From assembly GCA_032718475.1 (NCBI GenBank), contig JAUCBJ010000055.1, positions 62,001 to 126,000 of the forward strand: a stretch of 64,000 bases of DNA, written 5' to 3'. This document shows, piece by piece, positions 2,861 through 43,290 of this stretch. The DNA is from Nemertoderma westbladi. Lineage: Eukaryota > Animalia > Xenacoelomorpha. A program made the position numbers and the translations under genes. The stretch's first letter is position 1, and each line of letters starts with the position of its first letter. The notes beneath the pieces are model-generated. The model was not told the origin of the DNA, searched no databases, and saw only the letters and a program-made list of their open reading frames with translations.

Positions 2861-3435
2861 TGTGAGCGTATTCAATTCCACCTCACCAACCCCCATAAAG
2901 TGGGAAAGAGCGCCTTTAAGCAATATTGGGGAGTACGAGGTTGATTAACAACCAACCTCGTATCACCCCCAATAAACGGGGACCTCACACAATGGAGGTC
3001 AGAGGTTAAGCCTCCGGGGAGAAGGAAAGTAACAGCAGCGGGGGGGGGGGGGGGGGGGAACACCCCCGCAGAGCTGAAGGCGATAAGTAGGGTATCAGCC
3101 AATGGGGGGACAGGAGAGGCATCAGCTAGGTAATAGGGCCAACATAGCAGTATATTACCGGTTGGTGTTTCTCATTTGTGCAGTTTAGTTAGTCAGCTAC
3201 CGGTCTTAGTGTAGAAGGAGGACATTGTTTTACCGTTGCCACTGGTATGTCATTCAATAGTTATCTCATGTATTCAACTTGTTCAACCACCTTATGCTAT
3301 TATACAACGCTGTCACACATTAACTCTTATATTATTATACCTACATCATCTATAACATCCTACAGTCCTATACCAGCTTGACGACGCGTACGAAACAATT
3401 ACTCCGGTCGGGATTGATCCATTGATCCCGTCACA
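2861..3435 (+). repeat. 5' LTR of element A
   Basis: Direct repeat of 48810-49397 (about a dozen substitutions plus indels by eye); TGTGAG...TCACA. Confidence 0.95.
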
Positions 3436-3496
3436 GTAATACAATCACCAGCTACCCGCTGGTGATTGTTTTACTAACTGCTAGAAAGAAAGAGAG

Positions 3497-6321
3497 ATGA
3501 GTTCGGGAGAACCCAGAGGTTCAGAGGGACAGAGGACACCGCCGCGGACCCCGGACGACAACTTAACGATCCGCAAGGCCGCGGTGAGACAGTATCGACC
3601 CACGAGGCCGGATTCGTCGACAAGAGACGGTCCGGCGGCACAGGCGGAGGGTGGCCGTCTACCACTGCGAGGGAGAGATAAGTCGAGAGAAGGGAGAGAC
3701 AAGTCGACGCACGACGGCAATCGACGTACCGATGTCGTCGGCCAGCCACAGGCCGAGGGCGACGGACGGCCCACCGGAACGGCAACGGTGGGGCCACCGG
3801 TACGACGCCAGATACGGAGAGAAAGAGGAGAGGTCGGCAACGAAGACGTCAGAGTTAGCGACCGGCTCCGACGGGCTTACAATGCCATGGAGGAACAGTT
3901 GAGGGAGGCCAAGGAAGGGGCGAAGATAGACCAGGTGAAGCTAGAAAAGCGGCTAGGTGAGTCGAATAAACACTTTAACTATCTAGTCCGCTTTGGACAA
4001 GGAGAGTTGGTGGGTGAAAGAGCGAGAGGGGTCGCCACTGAACTGTTTGAACTGTGGGAATGTAGGGGTATGGAGCCTGGTGTAGTGTACATAGGGCCAT
4101 ACTTAGTTGATGCCAGGAGAGTTAAGTTAGTGGGTTGGGCGGGACTGCACGAGGGCGAATCCGAGGTTAACTCCGAGGATTAGATCTCGTCGGTCAGCAA
4201 GAACCCCGGAAAGCGGGGGAAAGTTAGTAGGACGGAGGGGCGACGGGAGTCCGTTGCAACCGATAATTCTGCTACATCCTCCGCAAAAGTAAGACGGGTG
4301 CGGGAGATAAATCTGGCGTATAAATTAAAAATTGCGGCGCTAGACCAGAAAGAGTTAGAGAGGCGACGGAGTGAGGAAACCGCATGGTTGGAGAGAGAAA
4401 GAGAGTGGGCAAAGGAGGATAGAGAGAGAGCCAAGGAGCGTAGAGAGTGGGAGATGAGAGTAGAGAGCGAGCCGGCGAGGCGGCTTGAGATGGTTGCGAG
4501 AGAGGCAGAGTTGGCCGAGCGAAGTTTATGAGATGACAGAGAGAGAGAGAGATAGAGGCAGAGCGTGTGCGGGATGATTTGCATGCCCGCCTAAGGGGGC
4601 TTACGCAATATCAAGCCAAACTGAAGCGCCGACTAGAACTGGTTGGGACTATCAGAGAGTGAGACCCCACTTACAAGCACCGGGCGACAGAATCAGAACT
4701 GGTGTAGCCGTACGGACGGGGGGGGGGGGGGGGTAATAATAGTACATTAGGAAATATTAATATTAATAGTACCGTAGTAGATAACACTAATCCCTTTATT
4801 ACAGGAAATATTTTACCCGGTAATTTAAATTTAAATTCAAATAATAATATTAATTCAAATATTCAAAATAATCCGAATAATTTAAATTTAGATACACAGA
4901 ATAATCCAAATAATTCGAATAATAATTTAAATTTAGAAAATAATAATAATTCTAATTTAAATAATTTAAATAATAATATTGATAACGGGGCTATTAATAC
5001 TAATGTAGGAGACACAGATGGTCCGGCCAATGGTAGCCTGCAAGGCAACGCATTTAGTGCACAGGGAGTAGCGGGGGCGAGAAACCCCAACAGGGGCCTG
5101 GTAGGCCACGTAGTTAGTAGGCAGGGAGTAGCGGGGTTGAGTCAACCCAATGGCGGCCTACCAGGCCACGCAGTAGTAGAGAGAGCGGAGGGGGTGAATA
5201 GACCCAGCCGCAGTAGGGTTAGTGCGTCAACTAGAGAGGGGTGTAGAAGTGGAGTAAGAGATAGTGAAGTTAGATGTGGCGAGTGGGGGGGGGGGGGCTA
5301 TGGGCGCCCCACCATGGAAGATTAGTGGCGAGAGAGGGGGTGCAGAGAATGCCCCACAAGGGGGCATAGAAGTGAAGTAAGAGATAGTGAAGTTAGAAGT
5401 AGCGGGTGGGGGGGGGGGGGCTTCGGGCGCCCCACCATGGAAGATTAGTGGCGAGAGAGGGGGGGTAGAGAATGTCCAACAAGAGGGACGCAGAAGTGTA
5501 GTAAGAGATAGTGAAGTTAGAAGTGGCGGGTGGGGGGGGGGGGCTACGGGCGCCCCACCATGAGAGATTAGTAGCGAGAGAGGGGGGGCAGAGAATGTCC
5601 CACAGGCTTCGGCGGATAATGCAAGGGGGCAAGTTAGGTGAACCGCGGCACCCGACGATGGAGAATAGTAGGGGGATGATGAGTATCCCCAGGAGGGTCC
5701 AGCCGGACCGAGTAGAGTCAGACCAAGATTCCATCCAGAGTGACGGAGACATCAGGGAGCATGTTACCAGGCACCGTAGACACAGAGGACAAAGATAAGA
5801 AACCGGAGGTGGTAGATGAGCCAGATGGGGAAGTAGAAGTAAGAGAGTGGGCGGAGGAGAATGGATATCCCAGCAAGTATCGGTATGGAGATGGAGAGGA
5901 GCGGACAGCGAGATGTCCGGAGGACAACACTCCGGAGGAGTGCCCGGAGGAGTGTCGGAAGGAGTGTCCAGAGGAGTGTCCGGAAGAGACGCCGGTCCGG
6001 ATGAGATTCATACCGACAAGGGGGAGCTTGAGTAGGAAGCCAGGATGGACAGGGATAGGACTATTATTGTACCTTCTGTTTTGCCTGTTCTTTCACTTTC
6101 TTTTCATTCTGCCGCCGGGAGACAACAAAGTGGGAGGTGGCATTTTGATGCCAAGTGGCAACAAAGTTAAGAAGGCAGTGGAGAGACCCGATTTCAGGGT
6201 GGCAGAAGAGAGAGAACCAATTCCTGGTGAGTTGGAATTGGCGAGGAGAGTGCGGCGAATCCTACAGGACCTACAAGGGGAGCAGTGGGAGAGTGCCTGT
6301 TGGAAGAATCGCCCTAGTTAG
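3497..6321 (+). pseudogene. gag: Element A decayed gag N-terminus fused to remnants of the integrase end
   Basis: The VVYIGPYLVDAR block is shared with B (7626) and C (23214), followed by an E/R coiled-coil and an Asn-rich tract. The 3' end resembles the RAVGKCCLLEGAP integrase terminus of B. No RT motifs are present. Confidence 0.75.
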
Positions 6322-6887: not shown

Positions 6888-7472
6888 TGTTAGCGTATTC
6901 AATTCCGCTAGCCAAGCCCACACAAAGTTAGCTTTTAAGCAATATTGGGAGCATGAGGTTGGTTACCAATCAACCTCGTGTCACCCCAATAAGCGGGGAC
7001 AACAGGCCCCAAAGGGAACACACACACAACGGGGGTCAGAGGTTACACCTCCAGGAGAGAGAGAGACAACAGCAGCAGGGAAAAACACTCCCAGGGAGAT
7101 GGGAGGGTGAGAAGTGAGTTATTAGCCAATGGGGGGAAGGCATCGGCTGAGTAACGCAATATGGCCAACCGTTGCAGTATATTACCAGCTACCATGTCAT
7201 TCACTTCAGTTATCTCATTCAGTTAGTCGGTTCAGTTAGGGCAGAGCAGTGACTTCTAATACTGTCCGCTGCCGCCATCATTCACTTATATTTTATATCC
7301 TATTAATTCAATACTGCAATAACTGTGTCTGTGCTTATCCTATTATATTTATACTGCTACAGCGTCAACAATATCAGAACTCTTAATCCGACAATAAACC
7401 CTTTTCACTCACACGGCGGGGACGCGTAAATAAAAGAACCGGGATAAATCGGGATCTTCAGATCCCGTCACA
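6888..7472 (+). repeat. 5' LTR of element B
   Basis: Direct repeat of 47762-48331; TGTTAG...TCACA. Confidence 0.95.
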
Positions 7473-7528
7473 GTATTAGAAACCAACAGCCCAAACTGTA
7501 GCTGCCAGCCACCGACCAAAAGACTAAA

Positions 7529-9910: not shown

Positions 9911-11760
9911 TTATTCAAAGAGACAGTAACAATACCTGCAATATCCTACTGTAGAGTTTGTGAATCAAATCATAAATCCGACCTTCTCACCAAAACAGTA
10001 AACTCCAAGTAAGCGAATATATATTGCAGTATCGGTCTCTTATAACCGGTGAGGCAGAAAACAGTCTACAAACAGACAAACTTCGATAAAACAAAATCCC
10101 GCGCAGCGAATCCTAAAATCAGGCTGACTCACTGACGGACTAAGGGGCTCGTATACTTTGCCGCGGTGTGATTTATATGGTTGGGCGAAAAGGACGCTAG
10201 CTAGGTGCAGAGATCTGGAGATGCCTAACTAGCGGGCAAAGCGCAGTACGGACAAAAGTTAATTTTATATATTTTGAGGTGTAAATAATTTCTAACTCGC
10301 GTGTGTTAATTCTGAACCATCAACATCAGTTTTGCTCCTTCATATATATAATTACTGGGTACGGTGTGCATTTTACAAATATTCTAATTTTGTAACTTGT
10401 AGGTCCAATACTCACAAATGATAAGGCTCCTTCCCCTTTCATGTATTTCCAGGACTCAAATTCAGGCATAAGGTTAATACTACGCCCAGAATTCGGCAAT
10501 TTAATTTACCAGGTCCCTAATACTAAGAAGAAATGTTAGTTTACTACAGTAGGCGTACTGTTACTAATAGCTAGCCTGGCGTCCTATCTAGAATTTTGGT
10601 TACCTAGGTGGGCTTGGTAACTTCCTATCAGGATGTCGGCGGGGACACGGTAGATGTTAGTATCCCTAATTAGCCTCAATTTATTTGCGCCTAGTCGTAA
10701 ACTGCCCTACCGCCTGAACGGTACAATCCTAATTCAGGTAAAACACAGTAACCCTCCTGGCCTACAAGTTCTAATGCAATGGACACCGTTGTACTACAAA
10801 TAGTCACAGACGCACCTGCACTTAGCAAGAGTTAGGCGTACAGTTTGCTGCACCCTACCAATGTGTATGCCTTGTACCGGTGTGCCTACGTCCTATCTGC
10901 GTACTAGTATCTCTGCCTGCTCTCCCCCCGTAGGAGTATGAAGGTCTACTGCGGTTTTTTCCTGAATTAAAACAGTACAATTCCTAGATGTAATTTTTGG
11001 CGCACAGCGTGTCACTACCTCTACCTTCGATCTTTGGTCTTATACTTAGGTAGCAAGGCATCGAACGCTGTCTAACCTTTCAGGCGATGGGCGAATAACT
11101 AAGAGTGATATTGCGGGTTGTCTCCTGTCTACATTCCTTAGATGTTCTCGTTCATTGCTGTGGCCCAATGTCTAGCCAGCCATCCTGTCCCTCAGTTGAG
11201 TTCACCGTGGTGAAGCATAGTAAAACAGATAGAAAAAGGGCAGATTAGCGATAATTCTGACTTTATTACAGAAGATATACTGAGAGATATAAAGATAGAT
11301 ATAACTGAGAGATAACTAATGAACAAATCGCACCCTTTTATAGCAAATTTGTGCTGCAATCAATCGAGAAAATTCTCGATTGTTCTATGAGTTCTAATAG
11401 GTTTTTAAAGATAACTATTGGTCCAGCGAATATATAACTTGCACGACATTGGTTACAATCTAATAACTACAATCTCATTGGTTAATCTTACTTCGAGCAA
11501 ATGCAATTAATCTGTAGCGGTCAATTTAAATGAGTTGAACTCTGCACAAAAAATAATTCGCACCTACTAGGATTCGAACTCAATACACACTACATATAAT
11601 TTCCAACGCTCTACCGACTGAGCTACTGAACCACTTGAATAATCATCGTACAAATAGATATAGTAATACAAATGAGGACTTAATGTAATCTTTTAACAAA
11701 GTTAATTCGAATAAAATAAAATTTTGAAAATCCACGGCGTTTAGAGAATATAATTCTATA
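9911..11760 (-). repeat. 3' LTR (~1.85 kb) of BEL/Pao element D
   Basis: Near-identical reverse complement of 40439-42433. Preceded on the minus strand by purine-rich GGAGCGG; TSD AGTG at 9907-9910. Confidence 0.9.
11559..11632 (-). other. tRNA-derived sequence (Pol III A and B boxes) in the D 3' LTR
   Basis: GGTTCAGTAGCTCAGTCGGTAGAGC...GAGTTCGAATCC. The D-arm pairs, but the acceptor and anticodon stems do not. Confidence 0.65.
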
Positions 11761-12604: not shown

Positions 12605-13804
12605 TTATCGCTTAGTAGATCGAGCCCTGCCGCGTCCTCGAAAACTGCGCACAGGTGACTTTGCTCGCGATATGGGACTCGTGGGGCGAGTCACTGGTTT
12701 TGCTTGTACGTTGGGAGACGGTGCGACCGTTTCCTCACAAATTCGTCTATTTGGTATCCCAAAACCTCGACCGATTCCTCGTGACCGATCAGTTGTCACT
12801 ACAGTTGGTAAAACGTCTGGCAACGCGCGGAAAGCGGTCGACGCAGACCCAAGAGTAGCTTGCGCCCCCTTTTGATCAGCTGGTGTATGTCCCGATCCTC
12901 CTGTTGGTTCTCTAGGAAGCGATACCGTATCCCGAGTAATTCGAATGGTCGGCTCAACTCCCTTGCGTTCTTCTATATTAATAGACTTCTTTAATTGTTG
13001 GCTCACTTTCTGGACCCTTATGATCCTACCCTGTCCGTCCTCCCGAGGGTGACGTGCAGACGGCGCAACCGGAGTGGCTGGTATATTTGTCGCCTCTAGG
13101 ATCTCCTCTTCCTCAAATACGCTCGCTCGTATACGTTTGTGGTAAAACGCGGCTCGGTATGCCCATGCGACGGTTAACCAAGCTCCCTTATTCCGCTTTT
13201 CAGTTCGGAAACAATCAAATTCACCATACGTGATACGATTCACAACTTTCTGAAAATTCCACGTATTTTTATTGTCCGGGTGAATCTGTAACAGATACTC
13301 GCGCACCACTCTAAATCCACTATCGTGAGGCAAAATGTCGACTACCTCGATAAGTTCGTCATATTGGGGCATAGCGGAGATGTATCCTTCCGACATCATC
13401 GTTTGGGGATTTACCGCCCAAAATCCAAGATGCGCTCTCATCGGAAATCGTCTTCTTTGTGCCGATACGTGTTCGTCGGCTAAATCTTCCCACTCATCGA
13501 ATAGTTTTCTCACGAGTTTTACAGATTCGTGTTCATAAGGTATGTCTCTTAGTTGGCATTCAGATGCTCGATGCCCTTTTATATTGCAATAAGTACATTG
13601 AGCCATAAATCTCCAGCAATTATAAAAGGTATGAGACCCTTGATCTCCACACCATCCACAGATTAGTTGAGTCGTAGTAATGTGCTTTCCACTGCACTTG
13701 GTCAAATGATGTCCAGCGACGCCACATTTACCACACATTGTATTGGCAGGGTACCACACTCGTTCATATATAAGATCTCCAATTGGTCGAGCGCTTCCTC
13801 CCAC
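12605..13804 (-). CDS. Element D accessory ORF, C-terminal part: three CCHC zinc knuckles and a basic RG-rich tail
   Basis: CGKCGVAGHHLTKC, CGWCGDQGSHTFYNC, CTYCNIKGHRASEC. In frame with ORF 13859-16438 across a single TGA. Confidence 0.85.
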   Translation of the reverse strand: MGGSARPIGDLIYERVWYPANTMCGKCGVAGHHLTKCSGKHITTTQLICGWCGDQGSHTFYNCWRFMAQCTYCNIKGHRASECQLRDIPYEHESVKLVRKLFDEWEDLADEHVSAQRRRFPMRAHLGFWAVNPQTMMSEGYISAMPQYDELIEVVDILPHDSGFRVVREYLLQIHPDNKNTWNFQKVVNRITYGEFDCFRTEKRNKGAWLTVAWAYRAAFYHKRIRASVFEEEEILEATNIPATPVAPSARHPREDGQGRIIRVQKVSQQLKKSINIEERKGVEPTIRITRDTVSLPREPTGGSGHTPADQKGAQATLGSASTAFRALPDVLPTVVTTDRSRGIGRGFGIPNRRICEETVAPSPNVQAKPVTRPTSPISRAKSPVRSFRGRGRARSTKR

Positions 13805-13858
13805 ACTATAATCATAATCATCTGGATCTATGGGTTGGTAGGTTTCTGAAGGTTGTAT

Positions 13859-16438
13859 TCAAACTACAGCATCTGTTGCTTCAAGTTGTCGAATCTCCGT
13901 CTGAGATTTCTTCGGGAGGTTCCTTTCTATCTCAAGAAGTTCCTCTAAAGGATCGTCAGTGATCGTAGTCGTTACTTCGAAATCATCACCAAGGTGACCG
14001 ATAGGCGCGCGCGTCTGCCGTGATTCATCCATAACCTCCACGATACGTTCTCCTTCATAGGGTAACAATGTAAACATAGATGGTCTTTCGATAAGAGATC
14101 CCGCACAGCGAAGATACACGTCTCGAAATATACTAAATCCTGCTCGAGTAAAGGCATTACACTGAGCGTCGGAGTTGTAGAAGGGTTCAAGAAATCGTCT
14201 AAACACGTCGGTATGAATTCTCCCTTCCATGTAGAACATATGATCTTCTCCGAGACAAAGTGGATGTCTTTTAAGAGTCCGAGACACAATGTCGGCGATT
14301 AAGCAAACATTCACTGACGACTCTATTGCTAAATAATATTGTAGGACCGCTCTTGGAGGTGACGTAATAGCCCAATACACGCATCCTCTCCATTTGAGCT
14401 GTGATTCAAACTCACTCATATCTGGAGTATCACCTTCTCCATAAGTCTCAATATACTTGGCTCTCTTACTTTCCTTATAATCCCAATTGAATAACAGGTA
14501 GGAAATGTATCCAGTTCCGGTCTTCTGAGTATTATACTCACGAAAATATCCTTGTTCTATAGACCACAAGATAAGAGGTCGAGTGTCGACGTACGGTGTC
14601 GGTAGTCGGTCATCGCTGTCCGTCATGCCGGTGAAGTCGCTAATTAAGTCCTCTCTTACTCCTGATCCAATCTTTACAACAGTTTTATCTAAAATCATAT
14701 TTCTTACCATCTTCGGTAGCATTCTAGCATCGATATTACAAGCTTGGTCCATCTTCTTTACTATGTCAGTGATGAGATGGTGTCGCTTTGTATTTGCTGG
14801 AGGTATCGGCATTCGTTTGTCGCTCCTCTGTCTACTGAAAACGTGCAAGACTCCGTCCGCCGCTCTAATTTGTATAGTCTTAGAAGTCAAACTCTGTTGA
14901 TGACTGCCGCCCTCGTTATCGTAAAACATGTAACCGTTTTCCTGAAACGATCTAAACGTTCTATTCCATTCGTCCAACAATTCTTCCGAAGGTTGCCAAA
15001 TCTTCTCTATGTCCTTATCATCTTCGAAACGAATAACCTTACCTCGCCAATCCGCGGCAATATCTGTATCCGACTCGAAGGTTCCAGTTCCAATCCATAA
15101 ACGAATCGTTCTGGTTAAATATCCTTTCAAATTACTCGGAGCTATATCAGCACCAGCTCTATCCAGTTCCCTAAAGTCTTGAATATGAGGTGGAACGTTA
15201 TACACGACCTTTTGAGTAATATGTCTACGTAAATCATATATCTTACTCATATCGCTAAAAACAACTGCAGGAAGAAACTCCAAGTTTGAAATAATTTCTG
15301 GATGATCCACGATGGGTATTTCGTACGTCGTATCCTGTCGGACTGGTATACTAATAGGAAAATTGAGTGTCGTACTCAATGGTTTCGTAGTCGAAGTACT
15401 ATATGGTTGCATTTCTCTTTTCCTCTCCGGGGATGCAATCTGTAGTCTCTGAATAACATTTTGAGCAAAGTTTATGCTCTCGAAAACTTCCGGTGTCATC
15501 TCCTTAGCTGGAGTTTGATCGTGTGACGTCCAATGGTAAGGTAGGCTCGCGAGTCTTCCGCCCCATTCTTCCATCTCACCTTTCTCAAAAGCCTTGTAGG
15601 CTCTGTATAGGCTAAGAGCTTCTTTCTTTTCGCGGGTTGACTGATTCGCCTCGTCCAGCATAAGTTCAAATGCATCGGGTTCAACAACCTTAGGTGGGTA
15701 AACGACAGTTTCTCCCGCCTTTGGTCCAGTCATAGCAAACGAATGATATGGATTTGATAAAGGATACCCTCCTTCCTGGTAGCGTAGTCGTTGATGGTTC
15801 GAACACCTCGCCAATATCGGTTCGGGATTTTCCTTATTCAAACGCATTGGAATCGCATTTCGTTGTTCGCGCATACAAGAACCGCATTGATAATAAAGTT
15901 TATAAACTGAAAATGCTTCCTTTGTTTCTCTATCGTCCCCTCGAGTTCGTCTGTAAAGGTGCATTCCATCGAATTCATCTCGTACCGCAGGCATAGGTTC
16001 GTGCGCCTTCAGGTATTGCATGGTATGATACAAATGACTAATTTCAGTATCGGGGTCTTCGCTAATGTCTCCCGTATCACACAAAGCGTCGTACGGGTAA
16101 AGTTCATTGAAGGTTTTGCGCAAACTTTCGATTCTTTCATTTAATGCGTTTTGCCTCCTTTTTAATACATTTGAGTCATATTTAGTTCTCGCGAGTTTCG
16201 CAGTACTTTCTGATAATTCCTTTATACCAAATATAGTGTAGTCTTTGGCTCCAAATCTCTCGAATGGCGCTGCTGCTTCCTCTTGGATATCATATCCCCA
16301 TCTCGGCTCTCCATGTATCTCCTTCTCCATAATTAGAGGTGTAGTTACATAATCATTACTACTAGAGGGAATACAACAGAGTTTGTAGTTAGTTGTGAGG
16401 AGACGTGAGAGTTTTCGTCTGCCCTTTTGGCTCGACAA
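13859..16438 (-). CDS. Element D accessory ORF containing a DEDD(y)-type 3'-5' exonuclease domain (WRN/EXD/Mut-7-like); likely ATG at 16330
   Basis: ExoI-like YMFYDNEG (~14909-14935), TIQIR, ExoII-like LDKTVVKIGSGVREDL, YVDTRPL, TGTGYISYLLF, and a possible ExoIII QYYLAIE. The ORF is open for 859 aa. Confidence 0.72.
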   Translation of the reverse strand: MSSQKGRRKLSRLLTTNYKLCCIPSSSNDYVTTPLIMEKEIHGEPRWGYDIQEEAAAPFERFGAKDYTIFGIKELSESTAKLARTKYDSNVLKRRQNALNERIESLRKTFNELYPYDALCDTGDISEDPDTEISHLYHTMQYLKAHEPMPAVRDEFDGMHLYRRTRGDDRETKEAFSVYKLYYQCGSCMREQRNAIPMRLNKENPEPILARCSNHQRLRYQEGGYPLSNPYHSFAMTGPKAGETVVYPPKVVEPDAFELMLDEANQSTREKKEALSLYRAYKAFEKGEMEEWGGRLASLPYHWTSHDQTPAKEMTPEVFESINFAQNVIQRLQIASPERKREMQPYSTSTTKPLSTTLNFPISIPVRQDTTYEIPIVDHPEIISNLEFLPAVVFSDMSKIYDLRRHITQKVVYNVPPHIQDFRELDRAGADIAPSNLKGYLTRTIRLWIGTGTFESDTDIAADWRGKVIRFEDDKDIEKIWQPSEELLDEWNRTFRSFQENGYMFYDNEGGSHQQSLTSKTIQIRAADGVLHVFSRQRSDKRMPIPPANTKRHHLITDIVKKMDQACNIDARMLPKMVRNMILDKTVVKIGSGVREDLISDFTGMTDSDDRLPTPYVDTRPLILWSIEQGYFREYNTQKTGTGYISYLLFNWDYKESKRAKYIETYGEGDTPDMSEFESQLKWRGCVYWAITSPPRAVLQYYLAIESSVNVCLIADIVSRTLKRHPLCLGEDHMFYMEGRIHTDVFRRFLEPFYNSDAQCNAFTRAGFSIFRDVYLRCAGSLIERPSMFTLLPYEGERIVEVMDESRQTRAPIGHLGDDFEVTTTITDDPLEELLEIERNLPKKSQTEIRQLEATDAVV

Positions 16439-16990
16439 CGCTCTAACCTCCTACCCATAGCCTAAGATCTAGGGTTTCTTTAATGACACGCTGCTTCTTA
16501 TCTAAAATTTTTTGCCGAAATAAAAACGAATTTGGGCTAAACTGGCTGTGAGTCTAAAATACTCACCTTTTGATCCCAAACTATTATCAGAAAATAAGCA
16601 GTCAAGAGTTAGTAATAAATATAGGGAAGTCTATTTTGACGTAACTTATTGAAACAAGACCGTGTAAAATTTAATTAAAATTTTTAAGAAAGGCTCGCAA
16701 GTCTTCCTCTCTTGTTTCTCTAATTTTAAGTTCCACCCGACTGTACCCTGAAATCTATTCACTGTAGAAAATTTTAAAATTTTTCAAATCCAAATGGATT
16801 GTCTAAAATTTCGAAAATGTCTCAATATTGTGAGTTCCAAGTAGAATTCCATTTCTTATACCTACAAATCCCGCTCCTATGTGACACATAAGGGTACTAC
16901 CCTCAATGTTCACATATAAAGACAATGGAATTCTACCGCTGTCCTTACTACAGTGTACAGGTACGTGGAAATCTATTTGTAAACTCCTAA

Positions 16991-19900
16991 TTATTTACTA
17001 ATATTAGGTGGAGATTTGTAGTCTCCAGACTCGTTACGAGTCTCTTCAAGAAGTACGAGACGTTGAGTCGGTCTGTCTACTGTACGACCGTCAATTGTCC
17101 GTACCGTCACAGTTCTTGTCACTCCATCCATAGATGGATGTGTGGCTAAAATTACACCTGTTATCCAGAAGCGTCTTTTTAGATTCACTTCCGCTAACAG
17201 CACGTGATCTCCCGGCTTTAATGCGCGGGTGTTATTGTACCATGTTGTTCTGGCAGAAATAGAGGGCAAATAATGGTTTTGCCATATTTCCCAGAATTTG
17301 TTAGCTAGTATTTGTGTGATTTTCCACGCTTTTCTACCGTAGCTATCGCCTTCCATTGGAAAAGAAATAGGCGTCAAAGTAGTCGGTGCCTGCATAAGCA
17401 GGTGTGCCGGTGTCAAAGCAAACTGGGATTGTTTGTCATCGGGTACTAATACTATTGGTCTAGTATTTAGTATTGCCTCGATTTCAACAAACAGTGTTGT
17501 CAGTTGGTCGTCTGTCAAAATGTGGTTTACTGGAATGACCTTTGCCATTGCCGTTTTTATATATCTAATCAATCTCTCCCAGACTCCGCCTCTCCATGGA
17601 CTATCTGGAGGATTAAACTTCCAAACAATCTTGTAAGGACGTAGTTCGTTTGAGATTTGATCATGATCTAATTTCTTAAAGGCTCTAGCAATTTCATTTC
17701 GAGCACCAACAAAGTTTGTACCTTGGTCTGAGTACAAGCATTTCACTAGTCCGCGTCTAGCGATAAATCGCCGCAATGCTAGTATAAACGCGTTGGTGGA
17801 AAGATCCATCACACGTTCAATATGAACTGCCCTACTGGACATACATGTGAAAATCAGTCCCCAGCGTTTTACTAGTATACGTCCACGTTTCGTATGTATG
17901 GGACCAAAGCAATCAATTCCAGTCTCTGTAAAAGGTGGTCTGAATGCTTGAAGTCGTGCTTGTGGAAGTTCACTCATTTCTTGAGTGCCTATTCTAGAAT
18001 GTACCTTTTTACAAATAATACACGTACGTATCACTGAACTTAACGCTTTACTGGGTCTAATTAATACAAATCTTGTACGTAAGTAGGAAAGACAGTGGTG
18101 TCTTCCAGCGTGTTTCAGATGTAAATGTGTGTCCAGTATCATTGCACGTTGTAATTCGTGATGCTGCGGTATTATTATTGGGTATCTAAAGTTTGTGTTA
18201 AAGTCAATGTTTTGAAGCCGAGATTTATGACAAATTAAGCCATTATAAATTATCGGACTCCAACTCAATATTGGTGATGACTTGATTGGTTGACCTTGAT
18301 TTATAGATGTGAATTCGCGTGCGAAATATCGCAGTTGGTAATGGCGAATTAATTTAATTTCACACCTGTCAATCTCAGTCAATGTAAGTCGACGTGTAAA
18401 GTCTCGTTTGCCTTTAACGTATTGTACAAAACGTACAATCCACGCTAATTTTCGGCAAGCATTTGTCCAAGAATCTGTTAAGTTTACAATACGGTCGACG
18501 TAAGTATTTGTGACGTCATCAGGTAAGTCAATGGAGAATTTGGAAGGTTTTGATTTACTAGAAGGGCCCACGGGTCCGCCGGTAGGTATTCCCTTGTTGA
18601 CTGTTGATCCGTCCGGGTCTACAAGTAATTTGTCCTTCTTTGTTTTCTTACCTTGATTGTCAGTACTTTGTAAGTCGATCGTTAATGGTGGTTTGAACTC
18701 TATGGGGTCACTGGGTTTCGGTAAACTTATTTTTCTGCCGATATTAATCCCAGGTCTCACCATAGGTTGCAAGTTTGGTATGTCTCTTGAGCGCAAAGTA
18801 ACACCTGTATTTACATTTACGTAGGTACTACCCACATCTGTAATACATGAGGTTTCACTGTGCTTATGGTTACTCAAGTGTGTCAAATTTGGTAGTTTGT
18901 CAATACAAGGCCGCTCCAATAGGGAAACTGCTGCTTTACTATTTGTCAATAGGTTACTAGTACTAGTGTCTGGTAGAACATTTTGTGACATGTCTGGTAG
19001 AATGTTTCGCGGAACATCCGCCGAAATATCTAGTGACGTGTCTGGCTAAATGTCTGGTTGACCGTCTAGTAACGCGTCTGGTTGACCATCTGGCGATATG
19101 TCTGGTGTAGAAAGGGTCGCAAGTCTTCCGTTCTTGACCTTTGAAGTTATATCTTTCCATTTCGCCTTCGGTTTTTTCTTGAGTTTAGCCGCCGTCCTTT
19201 TCTTTGCTTTCCCTTTCTTTGGTTTTTTAATTTCGGCGTCTTTAGGGATAGCGTTAGACTTGTTGTCGTATAGTGGCGGCCAATGTTGTACTGATCTTTG
19301 CAAGAATTGTGGTCCGTGTTGCCAAAATTCTTTGTTTTCCGGTTTACAGAATTCCTCGGGCATCATTCCTCGCGACGCAATATCAGCTGGATTTTGTGGT
19401 CCGGGACAATGTCGCCAATCTTCCTTTATTGAACGGTCTAGAATTTCTGCGCGACGGTTAGCTACGAATGTCTTGAATTCAAGTGTGTCGTTGTTTATGT
19501 AAAATAAAACCAACGTCACGTCAGTCCAATAAAATATCTGTAAACTTGACTGTAGTTCCGTCTGTATAAGGTTCACGATTGTGGTTGACAGGGTTGCGGC
19601 TTGTAGCTCAGCGCGTGGTGTCGTCATATACTTAGTAGGCATGGTCTTAGCCTTAGAAGTAATGAGCGAAACATCAAACTCTTCTGAGTCTACTTGTCTG
19701 CGCAAGTACGCTGCCACACCAAAGCCGTTGTCACTGGTGTTGGAAAAACAATGTAATTCCAAGTTGTCAGGAAACGTCGTTTGTAATGGAAAGTACACTC
19801 TGGGTATGGAATAATCCTCTAGTGAAGATAATTGTGCCTCCCAGGTTTTCCATAAGTCCACTTGTTCTGATGAGATCGGCTCGTCCCATGTCAGTCCATC

Positions 19901-21967: not shown

Positions 21968-21972
21968 GTCTC

Positions 21973-22516: not shown

Positions 22517-22588
22517 GTAACTAAACCAGAGCTGCCGCCCTAGCTAACTAGACTCAGCAACCACCAGCCACCAACCTGCAGAAGAGAG

Positions 22589-25500: not shown

Positions 25501-25808
25501 TGCAGACTGTAGGACATACTGTAGGCCTTACTGCACATACCATAGGCCATACTGAGAGAGGCAATGTAGGCGATAGGATGGCGTGGACAACGGGATTAAA
25601 CCCGGAAGTCGCGGAATACATACCGGCGAGTAGGCCAGAAGCTGATAGGCCTATACCGGTACCAGCACTGCAGTATGACTACAGCATGCAGGGACATAAC
25701 ATATACCCAGGGGAGGGGGGAATTATTGCGGATAGGTGTATGGGCCCCAACATATTAACATCAACCCCAGTACCAAACATACCGGTGGGGGGGGGGGGGA
25801 CAGGGTGA
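22589..25808 (+). pseudogene. gag: Element C gag N-terminal region, broken by stops and poly-G frameshifts
   Basis: Homologous to the gag starts of A and B, with a coiled-coil, an Asn-rich tract and 60-bp repeats at 24455-24750. Confidence 0.78.
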
Positions 25809-25866
25809 CATTCCCCCATCACAATATCAACAATATACCCCGATAGGAGCAAGAACAACGAGACCC

Positions 25867-30798: not shown

Positions 30799-31343
30799 TG
30801 TTAGCTTATTCAATCCCGCTAACACCACATAAAGTTATAAGCCGATAAGCAATATTGGGAGCCACGAGATTGGGTAATTAGCCAACTCGTGCCATCCCAA
30901 TAAGAATGGGAAGGAAACACACAACGAGGGTCAGGGGCCAAACCCCTAACCCAGAGAGAATAGGTGGAGTGAACGAGAACACTCCAAAGGGCGCCAACAA
31001 GGGTATCAACCAATCAGAGGGGGGAAAGGCATCGATTAGGTAGAGTAACAAGGCCAACCGTGCAATATAGCCACTTGGCAGTAATCATATCAATTCAGTT
31101 ATCTCAGTGCAATACCGGTGCTAGATTAGGTTACATAGTTTAGCTAGGGAAGGACCAGGACTTTAGTTACCGTATCCCGCCTTCCGTATACGACAATATT
31201 ATCTCATATCTATATCTATATCTATATCTGCATACCCGAATATTATATACGACAAACAGCACAAACTCATTCACTCTTTATACACGGCGGGGATGCGTGA
31301 ACTAACAACGGATAAACCGGGATCCCTCTTGGATCCCGTCACA
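30799..31343 (+). repeat. 3' LTR of element C
   Basis: Follows the hairpin and PPT; followed by TSD GTCTC. Confidence 0.96.
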
Positions 31344-34731: not shown

Positions 34732-37700
34732 TTAAGGTGCTCCCTCTAGAAGACAGCACTTCCCTACAGCCCTCCTATAGGTTTTATTGTCTTTCGCACC
34801 TATCTTGCCACCTATCCACACTTCTACCGATCGGACTCTTCCATCCTCATCGGAGTAAGTGCCCACAACTCTCACCAACCGCCATTGGTTGTTGATGATG
34901 GTATCGTCAGTGACGATCACAAGATCACCCTTCTTTAGCTCTCTATTCGTGTTCCTCCACTTACTTCTTCTATGTAGTGTGGGCAGATATTCCTCGACCC
35001 ACCTCTTCCAGTACTCTGCGCTTATCGCCTTAGCAACTTTCCAACTCTGTCGGGAGTGTATATCGTCTGGGTCTACACCCCGCATGTCGATTGTCGCTGG
35101 CCTTTCCATTAGAAAGTTACTGGGCGTCAGCACGTCTAATGACTCAGGGTCATCATTTTCTAGATATAGCGGTCTGCTATTAATGATACCCTCACACTTC
35201 GCTAGTACTGTCCTTAGTACGTCCTCCATAACCATGTGGGTGTTCATCAACTTCGTCATCAGACGCTTGGAAATCCTATCCCACTTCACCTGTTGTCTTC
35301 TCATGGCTGCCCTGACTTCTTCCCCTTCCAGGATATCCAAGGCCTCTGCCATCTTGTTCTCCGCCCCCACAAAGTTGGTCCCATTGTCAGAATATATTAC
35401 TGTGATCGTACCACCTTTGCGGTCTCTAAACCTTTCTAGAGCATTAATGAATGCTGATGCGGTTGCATCCTGGGCGAGTTCTATCCCTACCGCCCGCGTG
35501 TTGTTACATACGAATATAATGCTGTAGCGTTTCTCAGTGTGTCGCATCACCTTAAACTTTATTGGCCCGAACATATCCACACCGCAATGCGTAAATGGCG
35601 GGTCATGTTGCCTTACCCTACTCGCCGGTAGTGGTGCCATCTCCTGTATGGCTCGCTCCTTCTTTGCTCATCGGCAGGTCTGGCACTGCCCCACTACCGC
35701 CTTTACCTTCTTCCTCAGCTGTTTGACCCAAAAGGTCCTCCGTATCTCCGTGAGGGTTCGGTTGGTACCCCCGTGCAATATCGACTTGTGGGAGTCCCAT
35801 ATAATCTGATGGACTATCGGCGATCCAGTAGGTATGATGATGGGCTTTGGCGGTATTACAATACTGTTGTTATTCAGTACCCTAGAGTTCATTACTAGGA
35901 TCCCGTCATCATTAAGTTGTGGTGATAGCGTGATCAGCTCGCTGTCCCGTCGGAGATGCTGTTGTTTACTGACGCGTTCCACCTCGTCGCCGTAGTTCTT
36001 TCTCTGCTTGTAGCAGATGATTGCCTTGGCCGCTCCTTCCAGATCGATGGTTGTCCTGATTTTTACGTCCTTGCCGACTCCCTTGAGGAAATCCCCAAAG
36101 GCTCTCCAGTAAGCCACTAACTTCTTGGTCTTGTACCAACTAGAGCTGTAGCTAAAGAGTTTGTCCATTGGGTTATCGCACAGTTCTTCCGGTTTCGGTT
36201 GCACGTCCCTTATCTCCCTCACCATTTGACTATATATCTCCTCACCTTCTGAATCTACTCCCTCCTCCTCTAATGCTACTTGTTCTGCGCCCGGGTCCAT
36301 TGGCGGCCAGGCCTCCTTATTGTTCAGAAACTGTGGCCCGTGTTGCCACAATACTTCCTTTTTTAAGAAAGTGTGGCGTGCCACGCTCCTTGATAACAAG
36401 TCCGCTGGGTTCTCGACCGTTGGGCAGTAGTGCCACCTTTCTAGCTCTGTGGTCGCCCTTCTTTCGTCTACCCTATTTGCGACGAATATAGGGTATCTCG
36501 TCCTTTCGTTATGTGGCCAACCAAGCACTACCATGGAATCCGTCCAGTAGTGTGTCTCCACTATGTTGGGAATAGCGTCCATTAAGTAGACTGTGGCCCA
36601 AACTCCTAGCCTCGCAGCTGTCAATTCGAGTTTGGGAACCAACGCTGAATCTGGTGGTGTCGACTTTGCCTTGCTGAAGGCGAGCCTGGGCTTGTGTGCC
36701 CCCTATCGTTGTACTAAATAGAGTGCCGCTCCGTATGCCTCTAATGACGCATCGGAGAACATGTGCAGATCCAGATTCGTCATGTCCCCATCCGGGAAAT
36801 ACACTTGTGGCATGCTGTATGTTCCCATCTGCTCCAAACTCTCTGTCCATTTACACCACTGTTTCCAGATCTCTTCTGGTACCTCTGCGTCCCACTCGTC
36901 CTTCAATTTGTACACTCTTTTGAGTATCTGTTTTCCTGTGACTAGTAATGGGGATGCTAGGCCTAGGAGATCGTATATCCTCGCTATATACGACACATAG
37001 CCCCTTTTCGTGTGGATGTCTGCGCCCTCCTGGCTTAATTGGTACTTCAGCTCGTCTGTCTCTTTGTTCCACACGATCCCCAGTGCCTTCTGTTGGGACT
37101 CTAAACGTTTGGTCGCCATGTCCTGCCCCTTGGCTGTCGTGGGATTATCCATGGTCGATCCTGGCTTCTCAAGTTTTATCGCCTCGATAAATTCCTCCAA
37201 ACTGGATTGGAATTTGGTTAGGTTAAAGCCGGATCCTTTAAGGATGTCGCGAACCTCGCGCCCTGTGTCCAGTAGCCCCTTAACCATCTTCCCAGACTCC
37301 ATCCCGTCATCTACGTAGAAGCCGCGTTGAATCATATCCACGGCCCTAGCACTGTATTTATCTTCCTTCCCCTCTACTGTATCTCTCACGGCTATAGTCG
37401 TCGTAAACGAAGACGACTTGGCTCCCATATTCTGTACTACCATCTTGTACATCGGTATAGTAGACGGTTCCTCGTCGCCGTCGTACCATAGGAAGCGTTG
37501 GCTGTCTCTATCCTCTTTGTCACACGGCCTTGGTTGAACATGCCTTCTATGTCACAGGTGAAGGCGTGTTTCCCGTTCCTGAATCTAAGTAGGACCTTGA
37601 TCCCTGAGTTGTAGATATTGGGACCCTCCAGCAGATAATAGTTTAGGCATTTGCCGTTTGTTTTAGCCGATGCGTCAACTACCATCCGCAGTTTACCTTT

Positions 37701-40434
37701 CTTTGGGTCTAGAGCCAAAGAGCCTTAGAGCAAAAGAAAGCCTTTCTCGACGTACTTCCTAATCGTCCTGTGGATGTACTCATTCTTCTCGGGGCTCCGT
37801 TTTAGTGTCTGCTTCAACTTACAAAGCCTCGTAAGTACCATCCCTCTATTGTCGGGTAGCAGTAGCTTCGGTAGTTTCCATACCATCCCTATGGTATACC
37901 GCCCCTCGTCGCATCTCATCGACTCCTTTACACTCTGTAGAGCCTGCTCGTCTTCTACCGAGGTTCTGACCCCGGTTTCTTTTAGTCCCTCAAAATCCTG
38001 CCTGAGCAGTCTCTTGAGTTGCTCCTCCGCTCCCTCATCCTCCATATCTTGCATAGTTCCCGCAAACATGTAGCCTGATGTCTCCGACATCCTAAAGGGT
38101 ATTTTACTCTTAATTGGGCCGCTCAGCGTCCACCAGAATGGTGTTAGAATCGCCACCGGGTCACACTGCCTGTCTTTGCCGAAGACCATTTGCATTCTCT
38201 CGTGGGCCGTTGGGCAGTCCATTCCTACTATGATGGATACCTTCCTAACTTCCACCTCTGGGATTGAGAAATTGATACTGTCCAGGAATCTGTATTGTTT
38301 GACCTCGATGTTGGTTGGTTGCCTGGCGTTGAAGTTTATCGATTCTATTACCTGGATTGGGTCGATGGTCGCCCCATAGTCACATCCCGGTGCCACCACT
38401 GCTATCGCGCACCGTCCGGTCCTCATCTCCAGGACCTCATCTCTGCTGGAGATGGTTGTTACTGCCATTCTACTTGGCCTCGTTCTCAATCCTATCTCTT
38501 CGGCCACCCAATTCTCGATTAATGTGAAGGCAGCTCCACTATCGACCAGCATCAGTGTGGTCACTGATCGATTGCCTTCTCCAATCACTCGCACTGGTAC
38601 TACCCCGAGTAGTACCATTCCTCTCTTCTTTGCTCCCACGGTGCTCGTTGCCATTGTCTGACCCTTACTTTGACCGAACTTAAACGGCATTTCCTCGCAT
38701 TGTTTAGCTCTATGTCCACTCATCACACATCGCGAGCAGATTTAATTTATTCTCGCGTACCTGAACTTCTCTGGGTAGCGCTTGCCAGTACCTGCAGTTC
38801 ATGGTCTGATGAAGTGCATTTGTATGTAGTTGGCATTTGCTCTTTGGGTAGTAGCCATCCTTATACAGTGCGTTACGTATAGCAGTTGAGTTAGTACCAA
38901 AGTCCCCACTATTCTTATTGTTTGGGTTTGGCCTACTGGGCGCGCTGGGGTTGTGTTTATTTGTGTTGTTATTTTTCCCCTGTCCGCTCCATGATGTGGT
39001 CTTACCCCTGGCTACCTGTGGACTGGCAGTCCCCTGCATCGCTGCGTATGGCAGTGACTGTCTGAGCTTTGGCAATGCGTTTGACGCGTTGTGTTCTGGT
39101 TTCGGTCTATGGTAATCAGTCTTTGGTCCTTTTCCCAGGCTATCCTCGCTATAGACTGGGTCCGTTATTAGTTCAGCTTAATAGTTTAAGAAGCTCGACA
39201 TCTCTTCTAAACCCGGTTCCGCACCCTTCCTATCTCGAGTGGAGAAAGCGATCTTTGTCCACTTATTGCGCAGCCAAATCGGTTGTGCCTGCGCTATCGT
39301 AGTGATGTTGTTAGACACGTTGAGTTCGTATGGCGCATCCAGTGTCTTTAGTACGATTAGCGCCTTCTCAACTTTGTTAGCAAATGTCTTTATGCTAACA
39401 GGGTTATCCTGTAGGCTACCTGATGTTATGCCTCTCAGGGTTTGCCGGATGATCTTGGCTGGGTGCCCGTATTCCCTGTCTAACGCCCGCCATGCCGTTG
39501 TGAAGCCACCCTCGATTCCCTGGTATTGCCTCACGATGTCATATGCTGGGCCTCCTATATACACTTGTAGATACTTTAGGCACTCCACCTGCGTCAAATT
39601 CTTTGTTAATATTTTATTACTATACATGCGCCGAAACTGTAGGTATTCTTCAGGCCTACTTCCATCGAATTTGAATGGTTCCACGGGTGGTAGCTCGATC
39701 CTGGTTTTTAATGCATCGATTAATGTGGCCATTCCCATTGCTTGCGCTTCCAATGGGTTCAATGGATGCTGTATAGGATGTTCTTGCACCTATTGGGGTA
39801 TATTGTTGATATCGTGATAGGGGAATGTCACCCTGTCCCCCCCCCCCCCCCCCCCCCACCTGTATGTTTGGAACTGGGGTTGATGTTAATATATTGGGGC
39901 CCACGCCTCTATCCGCAATAATTCTCCCCTCCCCTGGGTATATGTTATGTCCCTGCATGCTGTAGTCATACTGCTGTGCTGGTACCGGTATAGGCCTATC
40001 AACTTCTGGCCTACCTGCCGGTATGTACTCCGCGACTTCCGGGTTTAATCCCGTCGTCCGCGCTATCCTATCGCCTACGTTATCTCTCCCAGCATGGCCT
40101 ATAGTATGTGCAGTAAGGCCTACAGTATGTCCTGCAGTCTGTATGTGCCGCTCGGGATCAAAGTTTAATCTTCTCGAATAATCCTCCCCGCGGCTACCAT
40201 AATCTCGATTGGCAGGTATATCCCGTCAGAAAATTTCTCTTCGACCCCCTCCACTACTCTCGTCCTTGTGCCGGTACATTACGTACCCCTCTCTCAGTGC
40301 GTATTGCGCCTTGTCAGGTCGCGTTTCTCCGGGACGACGGCAATCTCCCGAAGTTCGACCCCATTGACTTTCCGTTTCCACCTCGACTACCGACGGCTCT
40401 TTATCCGTCCTCGCTCTCCTGTCGTTCTTGACGA
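34732..40434 (-). pseudogene. pol: Element B gag core and pol (PR, RT, RH, IN), fragmented and inverted relative to its LTRs
   Basis: PFKFDGS, MLVDSGA, RMVVDAS, FYVDD, LHMFSDAS, VPKLEL, ENPAD, HGG..CQTC, GVDMFGP, SDNGTNF. Confidence 0.95.
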
Positions 40435-40566
40435 CACTTATAGAATTATATTCTCTAAACGCCGTGGATTTTCAAAATTTTATTTTATTCGAATTAACTT
40501 TGTTAAAAGATTACATTAAGTCCTCATTTGTATTACTATATCTATTTGTACGATGATTATTCAAGT

Positions 40567-40640
40567 GGTTCAGTAGCTCAGTCGGTAGAGCGTTGGATAT
40601 TATATGTAGTGTGTATTGAGTTCGAATCCTAGTAGGTGCG
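40567..40640 (+). other. tRNA-derived sequence in the D 5' LTR
   Basis: A box TAGCTCAGTCGG and B box GAGTTCGAATCC. Confidence 0.65.
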
Positions 40641-40716
40641 AATTATTTTTTGTGCAGAGTTCAACTCATTTAAATTGACCGCTACAGATTAATTGCATTT
40701 GCTCGAAGTAAGATTA

Positions 40717-40905
40717 CTACTACTAGGATCGGCGTGCTGCATTGCAGCTGCATTTTTAAGAATGCTGTGCCGGCTTGTCAACAAAATTGCACCGCCACAA
40801 CTCCCTATCACCCATGACATTTGCTAGATCATCCGCATCTTTAAGGCCAGTGTCCTTTAAGATGCGTCTCAAGAAAGTCATGGGCTGTCCACCATGCTTA
40901 TATGC
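40717..40905 (-). mobile_element. 5'-truncated RTE1-family insertion
   Basis: Almost identical to 2608-2792, with a (TAG)n tail and an 11-bp TSD AAGTAAGATTA (40706-40716 and 40906-40916). Absent from the other D LTR. Confidence 0.95.
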
Positions 40906-43290
40906 AAGTAAGATTAACCAATGAGATTGTAGTTATTAGATTGTAACCAATGTCGTGCAAGTTATATATTCGCTGGACCAATAGTTATCTTTAAAAACCT
41001 ATTAGAACTCATAGAACAATCGAGAATTTTCTCGATTGATTGCAGCACAAATTTGCTATAAAAGGGTGCGATTTGTTCATTAGTTATCTCTCAGTTATAT
41101 CTATCTTTATATCTCTCAGTATATCTTCTGTAATAAAGTCAGAATTATCGCTAATCTGCCCTTTTTCTATCTGTTTTACTATGCTTCACCACGGTGAACT
41201 CAACTGAGGGACAGGATGGCTGGCTAGACATTGGGCCACAGCAATGAACGAGAACATCTAAGGAATGTAGACAGGAGACAACCCGCAATATCACTCTTAG
41301 TTATTCGCCCATCGCCTGAAAGGTTAGACAGCGTTCGATGCCTTGCTACCTAAGTATAAGACCAAAGATCGAAGGTAGAGGTAGTGACACGCTGTGCGCC
41401 AAAAATTACTTCTAGGAATTGTACTGTTTTAATTCAGGAAAAAACCGCAGTAGACCTTCATACTCCGGTACAAGGCATACACATTGGTAGGGTGCAGCAA
41501 ACTGTACGCCTAACTCTTGCTAAGTGCAGGTGCGTCTGTGACTATTTGTAGTACAACGGTGTCCATTGCATTAGAACTTGTAGGCCAGGAGGGTTACTGT
41601 GTTTTACCTGAATTAGGATTGTACCGTTCAGGCGGTAGGGCAGTTTACGACTAGGCGCAAATAAATTGAGGCTAATTAGGGATACTAACATCTACCGTGT
41701 CCCCGCCGACATCCTGATAGGAAGTTACCAAGCCCACCTAGGTAACCAAAATTCTAGATAGGACGCCAGGCTAGCTATTAGTAACAGTACGCCTACTGTA
41801 GTAAACTAACATTTCTTCTTAGTATTAGGGACCTGGTAAATTAAATTGCCGAATTCTGGGCGTAGTATTAACCTTATGCCTGAATTTGAGTCCTGGAAAT
41901 ACATGAAAGGGGAAGGAGCCTTATCATTCGTGAGTATTGGACCTACAAGTTACAAAATTAGAATATTTGTAAAATGCACACAGTACCCAGTAATTATATA
42001 TATGAAGGAGCAAAACTGATCTTGATGGTTCAGAATTAACACACGCGAGTTAGAAATTATTACACCTCAAAATATATAAAATTAACTTTTGTCCGTACTG
42101 CGCTTTGCCCGCTAGTTAGGCATCTCCAGATCTCTGCACCTAGCTAGCGTCCTTTTCGCCCAACCATATAAATCACACCGCGGCAAAGTATACGAGCCCC
42201 TTAGTCCGTCAGTGAGTCAGCCTGATTTTAGGATTCGCTGCGCGGGATTTTGTTTTATCGAAGTTTGTCTGTTCGTAGACTGTTTTCTGCCTCACCGGTT
42301 ATAAGAGACCGATACTGCAATATATATTCGCTTACTTGGAGTTTACTGTTTTGGTGAGAAGGTCGGATTTATGATTTGATTCACAAACTCTACAGTAGGA
42401 TATTGCAGGTATTGTTACTGTCTCTTCGAATAATAGGAGTATGTGTATTATTTAACATATTTCCTAGAATAGTAGGAGTATGTTTTACTGAACTACGGTT
42501 CGGTAGGACTAAAGTTATTTAAAAAAAAAAAAATTTTGTATTTTGAAGTAAAAGTTTATATTTGATTAGCTAAGTGCTAATATTTTGAAATAAAATTTGA
42601 TTTGAACCGCGTGTAAAATATTTTGGAATTGAATACCGGTGTTTAAAAAGGGTTTAAATACCATATTGTACCGGTACAAAATTCTCGTAAAAGTAAAACC
42701 TAACTCTTTTGTTTTTCAGGATTCAGAGCTCATTTCTAGACTGTAACGAGAGCAAGACCGTGTTTAGCAAGTTTGGGAGATAGATAACCCAACAACTTTG
42801 GTTGGGAAAATCGCACTTCGTCCGCAACGCTGGAAACGGAACGGTTCACGTCCGGTTTGTATCTGGGAATCTGTTTTTCTGGAGAATCATTGGAGTGGGT
42901 GAGTTCGAAAAGTTGCATAAGTAAGTTAGGCATTACCGTATTAGTTAAAATTATTGTGGGTTCCACTGTCTCAAGTATTTATGCATTCCGTATGATTTCT
43001 TTGTTTATTGCTGAATTAGTCCGTATTATTGTATTTAATTTATATTTTGATAACGTATATCGTTATCCGCTTTATTTGTTATAAAATTGGCCGTTAGGCT
43101 AATTTTATTATATACTTATTCCGTGACATTTATTTGCTGTAAAATTGGCCGTTTAGGCTAATTTTATCCATCTGCTATAAAATCGGCCGGTAGGCTAATT
43201 TTATATGACTGTAACTAGTACCGTTTAGATATAAATACGGTAAATTTGATACTTTGACACTCACATTTTACTTGACTTACAACTACCGAA

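Follow-up and report, generated by a model that had tools for sequence, protein, structure and literature searches.

Candidate self-priming in BEL/Pao elements whose primer-binding sites match their own long terminal repeats

Our results point to a candidate self-priming system in BEL/Pao retrotransposons. In a 64,000-nucleotide (nt) stretch of the Nemertoderma westbladi genome (GenBank assembly GCA_032718475.1, contig JAUCBJ010000055.1, positions 62,001 to 126,000 of the forward strand), which we call the window, four nested long terminal repeat (LTR) elements, A to D, lack a primer-binding site (PBS) for a tRNA, and the bases following the 5′ LTR are complementary to a segment of the element's own LTR, the anti-PBS. 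As a sequence signature this self-complementary PBS is real and well supported, and self-priming is likely: A to D would prime minus-strand DNA with their own RNA, cut in cis by the element's RNase H by analogy with Tf1 of Schizosaccharomyces pombe, a reading to which we assign a probability of about 0.65. The same Tf1-like scheme, with a primer internal to the LTR transcript, had been put forward in a sequence-only reading of the window; it gains support here from covariation in related families and from pairing upstream of the site, cleavage and priming being the steps that we infer.

Results

Element A contains B, D lies inside B in the opposite sense, and C lies inside the pol region of D. 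A, B and C all have TG..CA ends, 5-bp target duplications and a polypurine tract (PPT), and the termini and duplications fix their LTR ends independently of any pairing. The LTRs and paired sites of these three elements are listed below; DRAC denotes the motif [AGT][AG]AC and U5 the unique 5′ region of the LTR.

2861..3435, + strand: element A 5′ LTR, TG..CA termini, target duplication GTCCT
48810..49397, + strand: element A 3′ LTR
3220..3233, + strand: A, DRAC motif (3220-3223) and anti-PBS (3224-3233)
3436..3445, + strand: A, PBS, 9/10 pairs, T-T mismatch at position 5
3436..3475, + strand: A, leader hairpin in which an exact second anti-PBS copy (3465-3474) pairs locally with the PBS (z -9.9, 0/200 shuffles)
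6888..7472, + strand: element B 5′ LTR, target duplication AGAGT, U5 hairpin 7450-7467
47762..48331, + strand: element B 3′ LTR, 15-nt deletion near the LTR end
7250..7262, + strand: B, DRAC motif (7250-7253) and anti-PBS (7254-7262)
7473..7516, + strand: B, PBS (7473-7481, 9/9 pairs) and leader predicted to pair with 7226-7250
21973..22516, + strand: element C 5′ LTR, target duplication GTCTC, U5 hairpin 22491-22511
30799..31343, + strand: element C 3′ LTR
22331..22343, + strand: C, DRAC motif (22331-22334) and anti-PBS (22335-22343)
22517..22546, + strand: C, PBS (22517-22525, 9/9 pairs) and leader predicted to pair with 22314-22322

All eight strings on which the sequence-only reading was built lie where it had placed them, TGG is absent within 8 nt after any of the four 5′ LTRs, and the pairings described for B, C and A are confirmed at 9/9, 9/9 and 9/10, respectively. 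The anti-PBS sits at a homologous LTR position in all three elements. A 9-mer with a perfect reverse complement in the preceding 575 nt occurs at 313 of 63,416 window positions, and shuffled LTRs reach 9/9 in 3 of 1000 cases for B and in none of 1000 for C; three control junctions between a 3′ LTR and host DNA gave matches of only 4, 6 and 0. The claim that pairing always starts at the first base after the LTR holds for A, B and C, whose ends are set by target duplications, but not securely for D, where the boundary is ambiguous by one base. Likewise, the claim that the letters differ between families with pairing kept is borne out across other BEL families (see below), but A, B and C are sister families (mean column identity 70%) that have the first three PBS bases in common and are not independent, so that the window holds about two independent cases of pairing. 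Two further proposals gained no general support: the stem presenting the anti-PBS in its loop in B and C falls within shuffles (z -1.4 to -1.6; 14-15/200), is weaker in the C 3′ LTR and is absent in A and D, and a CG following the anti-PBS is not general.

Support for the self-complementary PBS also comes from related BEL elements. Relatives were searched with an alignment of the reverse transcriptase (RT)-RNase H region; the best 80 of 418 metagenome-contig stretches and 6 loci in genome contigs gave 86 loci (numbered with an L), which form 45 families at 85% identity, and the 5′ LTR end was placed in 18 rows, nine from both LTR copies and nine by eye from the motif at the U5 end. TGG is absent in 16 of the 18 placed metagenome rows, and 13 of these 16 match their own LTR over 9-15 nt (exactly 11 nt in nine), with 12 of the 13 pairing from the first base after the LTR. 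Three of the matches are contiguous and ten exist only across a GT-AG intron in the LTR. In the two TGG rows the own-LTR match is limited to 6 nt and to 4 nt; for the row with 4 nt, the contig contains just 107 nt of LTR. The remaining non-TGG rows (L121, L146 and L182) have partial LTRs in their contigs, and in L121 and L146 the 6-nt half expected next to a splice donor is present. In L194 the match, of 15 nt, begins 3 nt past the LTR, and in L129 the PBS and LTR end depart from the GT-type rule with pairing retained.

Every PBS was then compared with every LTR in 19 rows, made up of the four window elements and the relatives, L122 and L123 counting as one. At offset 0, matches of at least 9 nt are found in 13 of 19 own pairs vs 14 of 342 cross-pairs; at offsets 0-3 they are found in 16 of 19 own pairs, one of them (L146) a stray match, vs 30 of 342 cross-pairs. 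The summed own matches are 168 at offset 0 (mean 107 and maximum 143 in 100,000 permutations) and 189 at offsets 0-3 (mean 130, maximum 162), figures that are not exact probabilities because kin have letters in common. The covariation that the sequence-only reading had proposed to look for is present among these BEL relatives, with pairing kept as the letters change. Forms with the intron and forms precisely lacking it occur inside one family, as in L122 vs L142 and in L193 vs the 3′ LTR of L185; the intron-free L185 LTR is followed by non-element flank, with assembly chimeras still possible. All four window elements are of the intron-free form.

The shape of the helix was tabulated for 14 aligned rows (10 relatives and four window elements, leaving out L123, L194, L202, L121, L146, L182 and the TGG rows). 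Positions 1-11 are Watson-Crick in 145 of 154 cells, with no G-U pair; most of these positions show between two and four types of pair. A pair at position 12 is seen in only one of 14 rows, giving a sharp end after 11; the table is descriptive and not a test, as sites were selected by best match. Of 18 rows, 13 have a DRAC motif whose end coincides exactly with the far end of the helix; A, B and C, with helices of 10, 9 and 9 nt, are among them. The background is about 2% per position, for a motif that was defined post hoc in related rows. For the LTR stretch upstream of the motif, pairing with leader sequence past the PBS is predicted: the own pairs sum to -329 kcal/mol, against a mean of -252 in 100,000 permutations that never reach so low a value, with three of 16 rows ranking poorly. 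G-U pairs make up 50 of 348 pairs in this neighbouring predicted helix vs none in the PBS helix.

A U5 hairpin is predicted five or six bases before the PBS in A, B and C with a pair probability of 0.93-0.98, and Tf1 resembles them in having a U5 hairpin beside its PBS. TATA- or initiator-like motifs lie 50-110 nt upstream of the site in A, B and C, and AATAAA follows the anti-PBS in B and D. The promoter-like motifs, CCAAT motifs among them, are of eukaryotic consensus type and suggest a transcript start about 50-75 nt upstream of the 3′ end of the site in A to C and about 375 nt upstream in D, and together with the poly(A) motifs they would place the anti-PBS in the repeat region R of the transcript. 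Because pairing extends upstream of the site onto the leader and promoter-like motifs lie further upstream, the primer looks internal.

Element D makes a weaker case, and its features are as follows.

40439..42432, + strand: element D 5′ LTR, 54-nt deletion after 41464, insertion of a long interspersed nuclear element (LINE) tail near 40706-40905
9912..11760, - strand: element D 3′ LTR, TA..TA termini
10930..10940, - strand: D, anti-PBS, intact only in the 3′ LTR copy
42433..42482, + strand: D, PBS (42433-42443, 10/11 pairs) and second PBS copy (42472-42482, 11/11)
12605..16450, - strand: D, extra 3′ open reading frame (ORF) of about 1280 codons with one stop, zinc knuckle and 3′-5′ exonuclease-like features (lead only)

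The 10-mer proposed as the D site does pair 10/10 with its partner in the 3′ LTR, but the partner in the 5′ LTR is lost and the LTR probably ends one base earlier than had been thought. The most likely D LTR has TA..TA termini, a 5-bp duplication and its last base at 42432, a boundary ambiguous by one base; a PBS starting at 42433 then pairs at 10/11 with its first base mismatched. By chance, a 10-mer complement within 1850 nt is found at 242 of 62,140 positions. The D LTRs are unusually long (1.85 kb), with TA..TA rather than TG..CA ends, and they face each other because a block of about 33550-44925 is inverted, with breakpoints within the D gag region and the B 3′ region and with the B gag-pol inside it. 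In the D leader the two PBS copies lie 39 nt apart, each preceded by five bases identical to the LTR end; the doubling may reflect an error in priming or transfer.

Two other features of D deserve mention. A language-model search with the extra 3′ ORF placed 24 of 30 Atlas matches in one PF01612 set (score 0.92, 162 shared features), but no homologue was found in Pfam, PDB or protein databases, no relative was found in B, C or the 86 loci, and the structure prediction is poor (pLDDT, the predicted local distance difference test score, of 30), leaving the exonuclease identity an unconfirmed lead. A B 3′ ORF (46253-46942) has a weak knuckle region in common with it. In the U3 part of both D LTRs, at 40566-40651 (+) and the equivalent position of the 3′ LTR, a tRNA-like A box and B box are followed by a T run; ARAGORN and Rfam did not call it, its cloverleaf is unstable, and it is possibly a Pol III promoter or the remnant of a short interspersed nuclear element within the LTR. 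As an encoded primer it was rejected, with only about 5 nt of complement to the PBS by eye.

Discussion

The primer 3′ end must lie at the first base after the LTR, which follows from how LTR ends are made, and since only own-element sequence was found pairing there, the primer is most likely the element's own RNA. In our model, the 5′ segment of an RNA starting about 50-75 nt upstream of the cut in A to C, and about 375 nt in D, would fold onto the leader to form the PBS helix, a purine-rich DRAC bulge and a second helix, with the U5 hairpin alongside. With the site apparently internal, a 3′-OH would have to be made, and by analogy with Tf1 the element RNase H would cut after ..TAC, just 3′ of the site. 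Plus-strand synthesis would then copy the final 9-11 bases of the primer into the PBS again, halting at the DRAC bulge; the strict Watson-Crick match, the covariation without G-U pairs and the sharp length would all follow from such copying. In many relatives the site would exist only once the LTR intron is spliced, the intron-free window elements presenting it directly, and an AATAAA downstream of the site, as in B and D, would leave repeat sequence for strand transfer.

An own-element primer might also act in trans or come from the 3′ end and be trimmed to the helix by a 3′-5′ exonuclease; it could then be a short transcript of the LTR, a small RNA or the 3′ R copy of the genome. This predicts the same covariation, the extra ORF of D could be read as such an enzyme, and LTR elements are known to carry DEDDy exonucleases in extra ORFs (PMC5408684). 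We nevertheless consider it unlikely, given that the exonuclease lead comes without a database match, with a pLDDT of 30 and with no relative of the ORF in B, C or the 86 loci, and that a 3′ R copy must keep the intron when the primer needs the spliced form, so that a 5′ primer would fit better. A purely structural or regulatory helix, serving packaging, dimerisation or a translation switch with priming by another route, seems to us rather improbable: in A to C and in 12 of 13 matching relatives the helix opens with the very base that follows the LTR, where a primer 3′ end must lie, it has no G-U pairs and a fixed length, and no other primer site is visible. On its side are the longer R-leader pairing to which the helix belongs, the competing hairpin in the A leader and the conserved hairpin of fungal GalEa at this position, whose role is not known (PMC5445492).

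That the PBS binds a host tRNA fragment or another host small RNA, the LTR match being secondary, is very improbable. Half-tRNA primers exist in Copia lineages (PMC6317226) and many primers would end in the same few bases, but positions 4-11 vary by family and follow the own LTR, in 10 rows only across the intron junction. Because the letters vary with each own LTR, often only across such a junction, the PBS does not derive from one host tRNA. Chance matching in AT-rich LTRs is effectively refuted. It would draw on the relatedness of A, B and C, on the unremarkable match of A alone and on introns that widen the search space, with cross-pairs reaching 9 nt at the rate given above for offsets 0-3; yet the own-LTR sums exceed all 100,000 permutations in the same search, the position is homologous in A to C, and TGG controls and 3′ junctions are negative.

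Several observations weigh against self-priming in cis or narrow its base. Transcript start, cut and primer are all deduced from sequence; 27 of the 45 families lie outside the examined set, and a motif alone served to place 9 of the 18 LTR ends. The choice of sites by best Watson-Crick match, which in the 10 metagenome rows makes positions 1-5 match by construction, is biased against G-U pairs. Across families there is no support for a Tf1-like helix 3′ of the site, with 16,663 of 100,000 permutations doing equally well, and AATAAA was not found after the anti-PBS in A and C. The PBS helix reaches a probability of 0.97 in whole-leader folds of B, compared with 0.2-0.3 for C and 0 for A. The A match of 9/10 is equalled at 42 of 1500 random positions (67 of 60,000 when limited to a zone of homologous size), and its perfect run of only 6 nt is reached in 268 of 1000 shuffles. 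Moreover, the A PBS carries a mismatch and a strong local hairpin that would hide it, and the 54-nt deletion in the D 5′ LTR cuts the anti-PBS, taking the last 4 nt of the proposed 10-mer. The damage in D and the mismatch in A fit decay after insertion, yet they deprive the window of a clean picture. The A leader (3436-3481) has the PBS plus 7 nt duplicated in inverted form, making a very stable hairpin that would conceal the PBS.

The closest known parallel is the Tf1/sushi group, in which Tf1 and Tf2 of S. pombe and Tj1 of S. japonicus similarly lack a tRNA PBS and pair about 11 nt of their own R just after the 5′ LTR. In Tf1, RNase H cuts between bases 11 and 12 (PMC7175516), and self-priming of this type is also described in PMC4600332 and PMC5341516. 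Complementarity of the PBS to the own R, which characterizes Tf1/sushi, is seen here with R tentatively positioned by promoter and poly(A) motifs. However, Tf1/sushi elements have a Ty3/gypsy (chromovirus-related) polyprotein, whereas the window elements have Pao-type domains and belong to a different superfamily; the Tf1 primer is the first 11 bases, whereas the site here is apparently 50-75 nt or more into the predicted RNA, with upstream pairing; and further differences from Tf1 are the DRAC motif, placed where the helix ends on its far side, and an intron that runs through the site in relatives. For plant TAR elements (Houba, Osr-1; Ty1/copia) and Tcn1, self-priming has similarly been predicted from at least 10 nt after the 5′ LTR that are complementary to the LTR, but these belong to other superfamilies, and the survey, in its available part, did not cover BEL/Pao (PMC6317226). 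Fungal GalEa elements, with their Conserved Hairpin Site, also lack a tRNA PBS and have a 9-nt post-LTR site that pairs with a downstream copy, as in the A leader; in the available part of that paper GalEa has no LTR complement (PMC5445492), whereas here the LTR complement is general and the local hairpin is confined to A.

The Belpaoviridae in the ICTV account (PMC8742986) are like the window elements in the order gag, protease, RT, RNase H and integrase, in LTRs, PPT and Pao-type domains. They are described with an 18-nt PBS for tRNA-Arg or tRNA-Gly and priming by host tRNA, which the window elements, BEL/Pao by their proteins, do not show; LTRs are given as 0.2-1.2 kb, vs 1.85 kb and TA..TA ends in D. 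The words PBS, primer, priming and tRNA are absent from the main text of two BEL/Pao surveys (PMC3118150, PMC6238403). In line with the sequence-only reading, which knew of no such description, we found no paper on BEL/Pao self-priming in a full-text literature search of partial coverage that left aside subscription BEL papers, Repbase and GyDB, so that prior mention is possible.

BEL/Pao ranks among the three big superfamilies of animal LTR elements, and its replication, described as tRNA-primed, has been called 'poorly understood' (PMC8742986). A self-primer in the 17 families seen here would revise that description and would show a further origin of self-priming outside Tf1/sushi, and it raises the question of how an internal, sometimes splice-built primer is cut and its copying stopped. 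PBS-based LTR finders will under-call such elements. Because the model names exact RNA ends, it is directly testable. We speculate, tentatively and with more doubt than belief, that in a large and old part of BEL/Pao the tRNA was replaced by an internal self-primer, splice-built in many families and intron-free in others, and that the conserved DRAC bulge, possibly methylated, acts like 1-methyladenosine 58 (m1A58) of tRNA in stopping plus-strand copying after 9-11 bases.

Other features of the elements and the window

The coding regions that bear on classification are as follows.

34732..39789, - strand: B gag-pol with DUF1759, aspartic protease, RT (YVDD), Peptidase_A17, integrase and DUF5641, broken by stops and frameshifts
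16991..21979, - strand: D pol with RT (YVDD), Peptidase_A17/RNase H, integrase and DUF5641, three in-frame stops
25759..28503, + strand: C gag (DUF1759) and protease

B and D have Pao-type gag-pol domains, their coding interrupted by stops and frameshifts, and the LTRs, PPT and target-site duplications expected of BEL/Pao are present, D with non-canonical termini. The domain scan of C gave gag and protease only, with no RNase H or integrase match, and three scanned ORFs of A had no Pfam match; A was assigned to BEL by DNA similarity to B and C. The LTR pairs are identical at 97.9% (A), 97.4% (B), 99.3% (C) and 99.6% (D). B and D form long branches in trees built without named clade references; they group with each other and with the two TGG families, a grouping flagged as possibly false. 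A, B and C have about 2.5-3 kb of extra 5′ coding sequence before gag, including a long ORF without a Pfam family that they have in common between PBS and gag (A 3497-4183, B 7530-8717, C 22589-23179, all +).

Among the relatives, L123:5892-6490 is a 5′ LTR chimera with an L122-type element in tandem, and L201-L205 are BEL elements in contigs of bacterial metagenome-assembled genomes (Endozoicomonas, Sedimenticola), most likely mis-binned host DNA. A protein scan found no relatives in viral contigs; 120 viral stretches with a 14-nt LTR-end pattern were taken as chance matches in phage-type records, and a specific LTR-end pattern had no match in metagenome contigs. One sequencing run had 7% of the sequence words, and none of its contigs reached an anti-PBS or a PBS.

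ARAGORN found no tRNA gene in the window. Rfam detected neither a ribozyme nor a tRNA family; its one match was a weak one to mir-6 at 55055, where 55055-55118 forms a perfect 64-nt hairpin. A BEL 3′ internal piece ending at the PPT (52019-52128) lies between two LINE fragments and adjoins a (TAC)n tail, and the LINE tail at 2607-2792 resembles the one inserted in the D 5′ LTR. Finally, we note a THAP/P-element-like transposase at 58905-61385 (-) and two integrase fragments of another LTR element at 56115-57755 and 62560-64000 (+).

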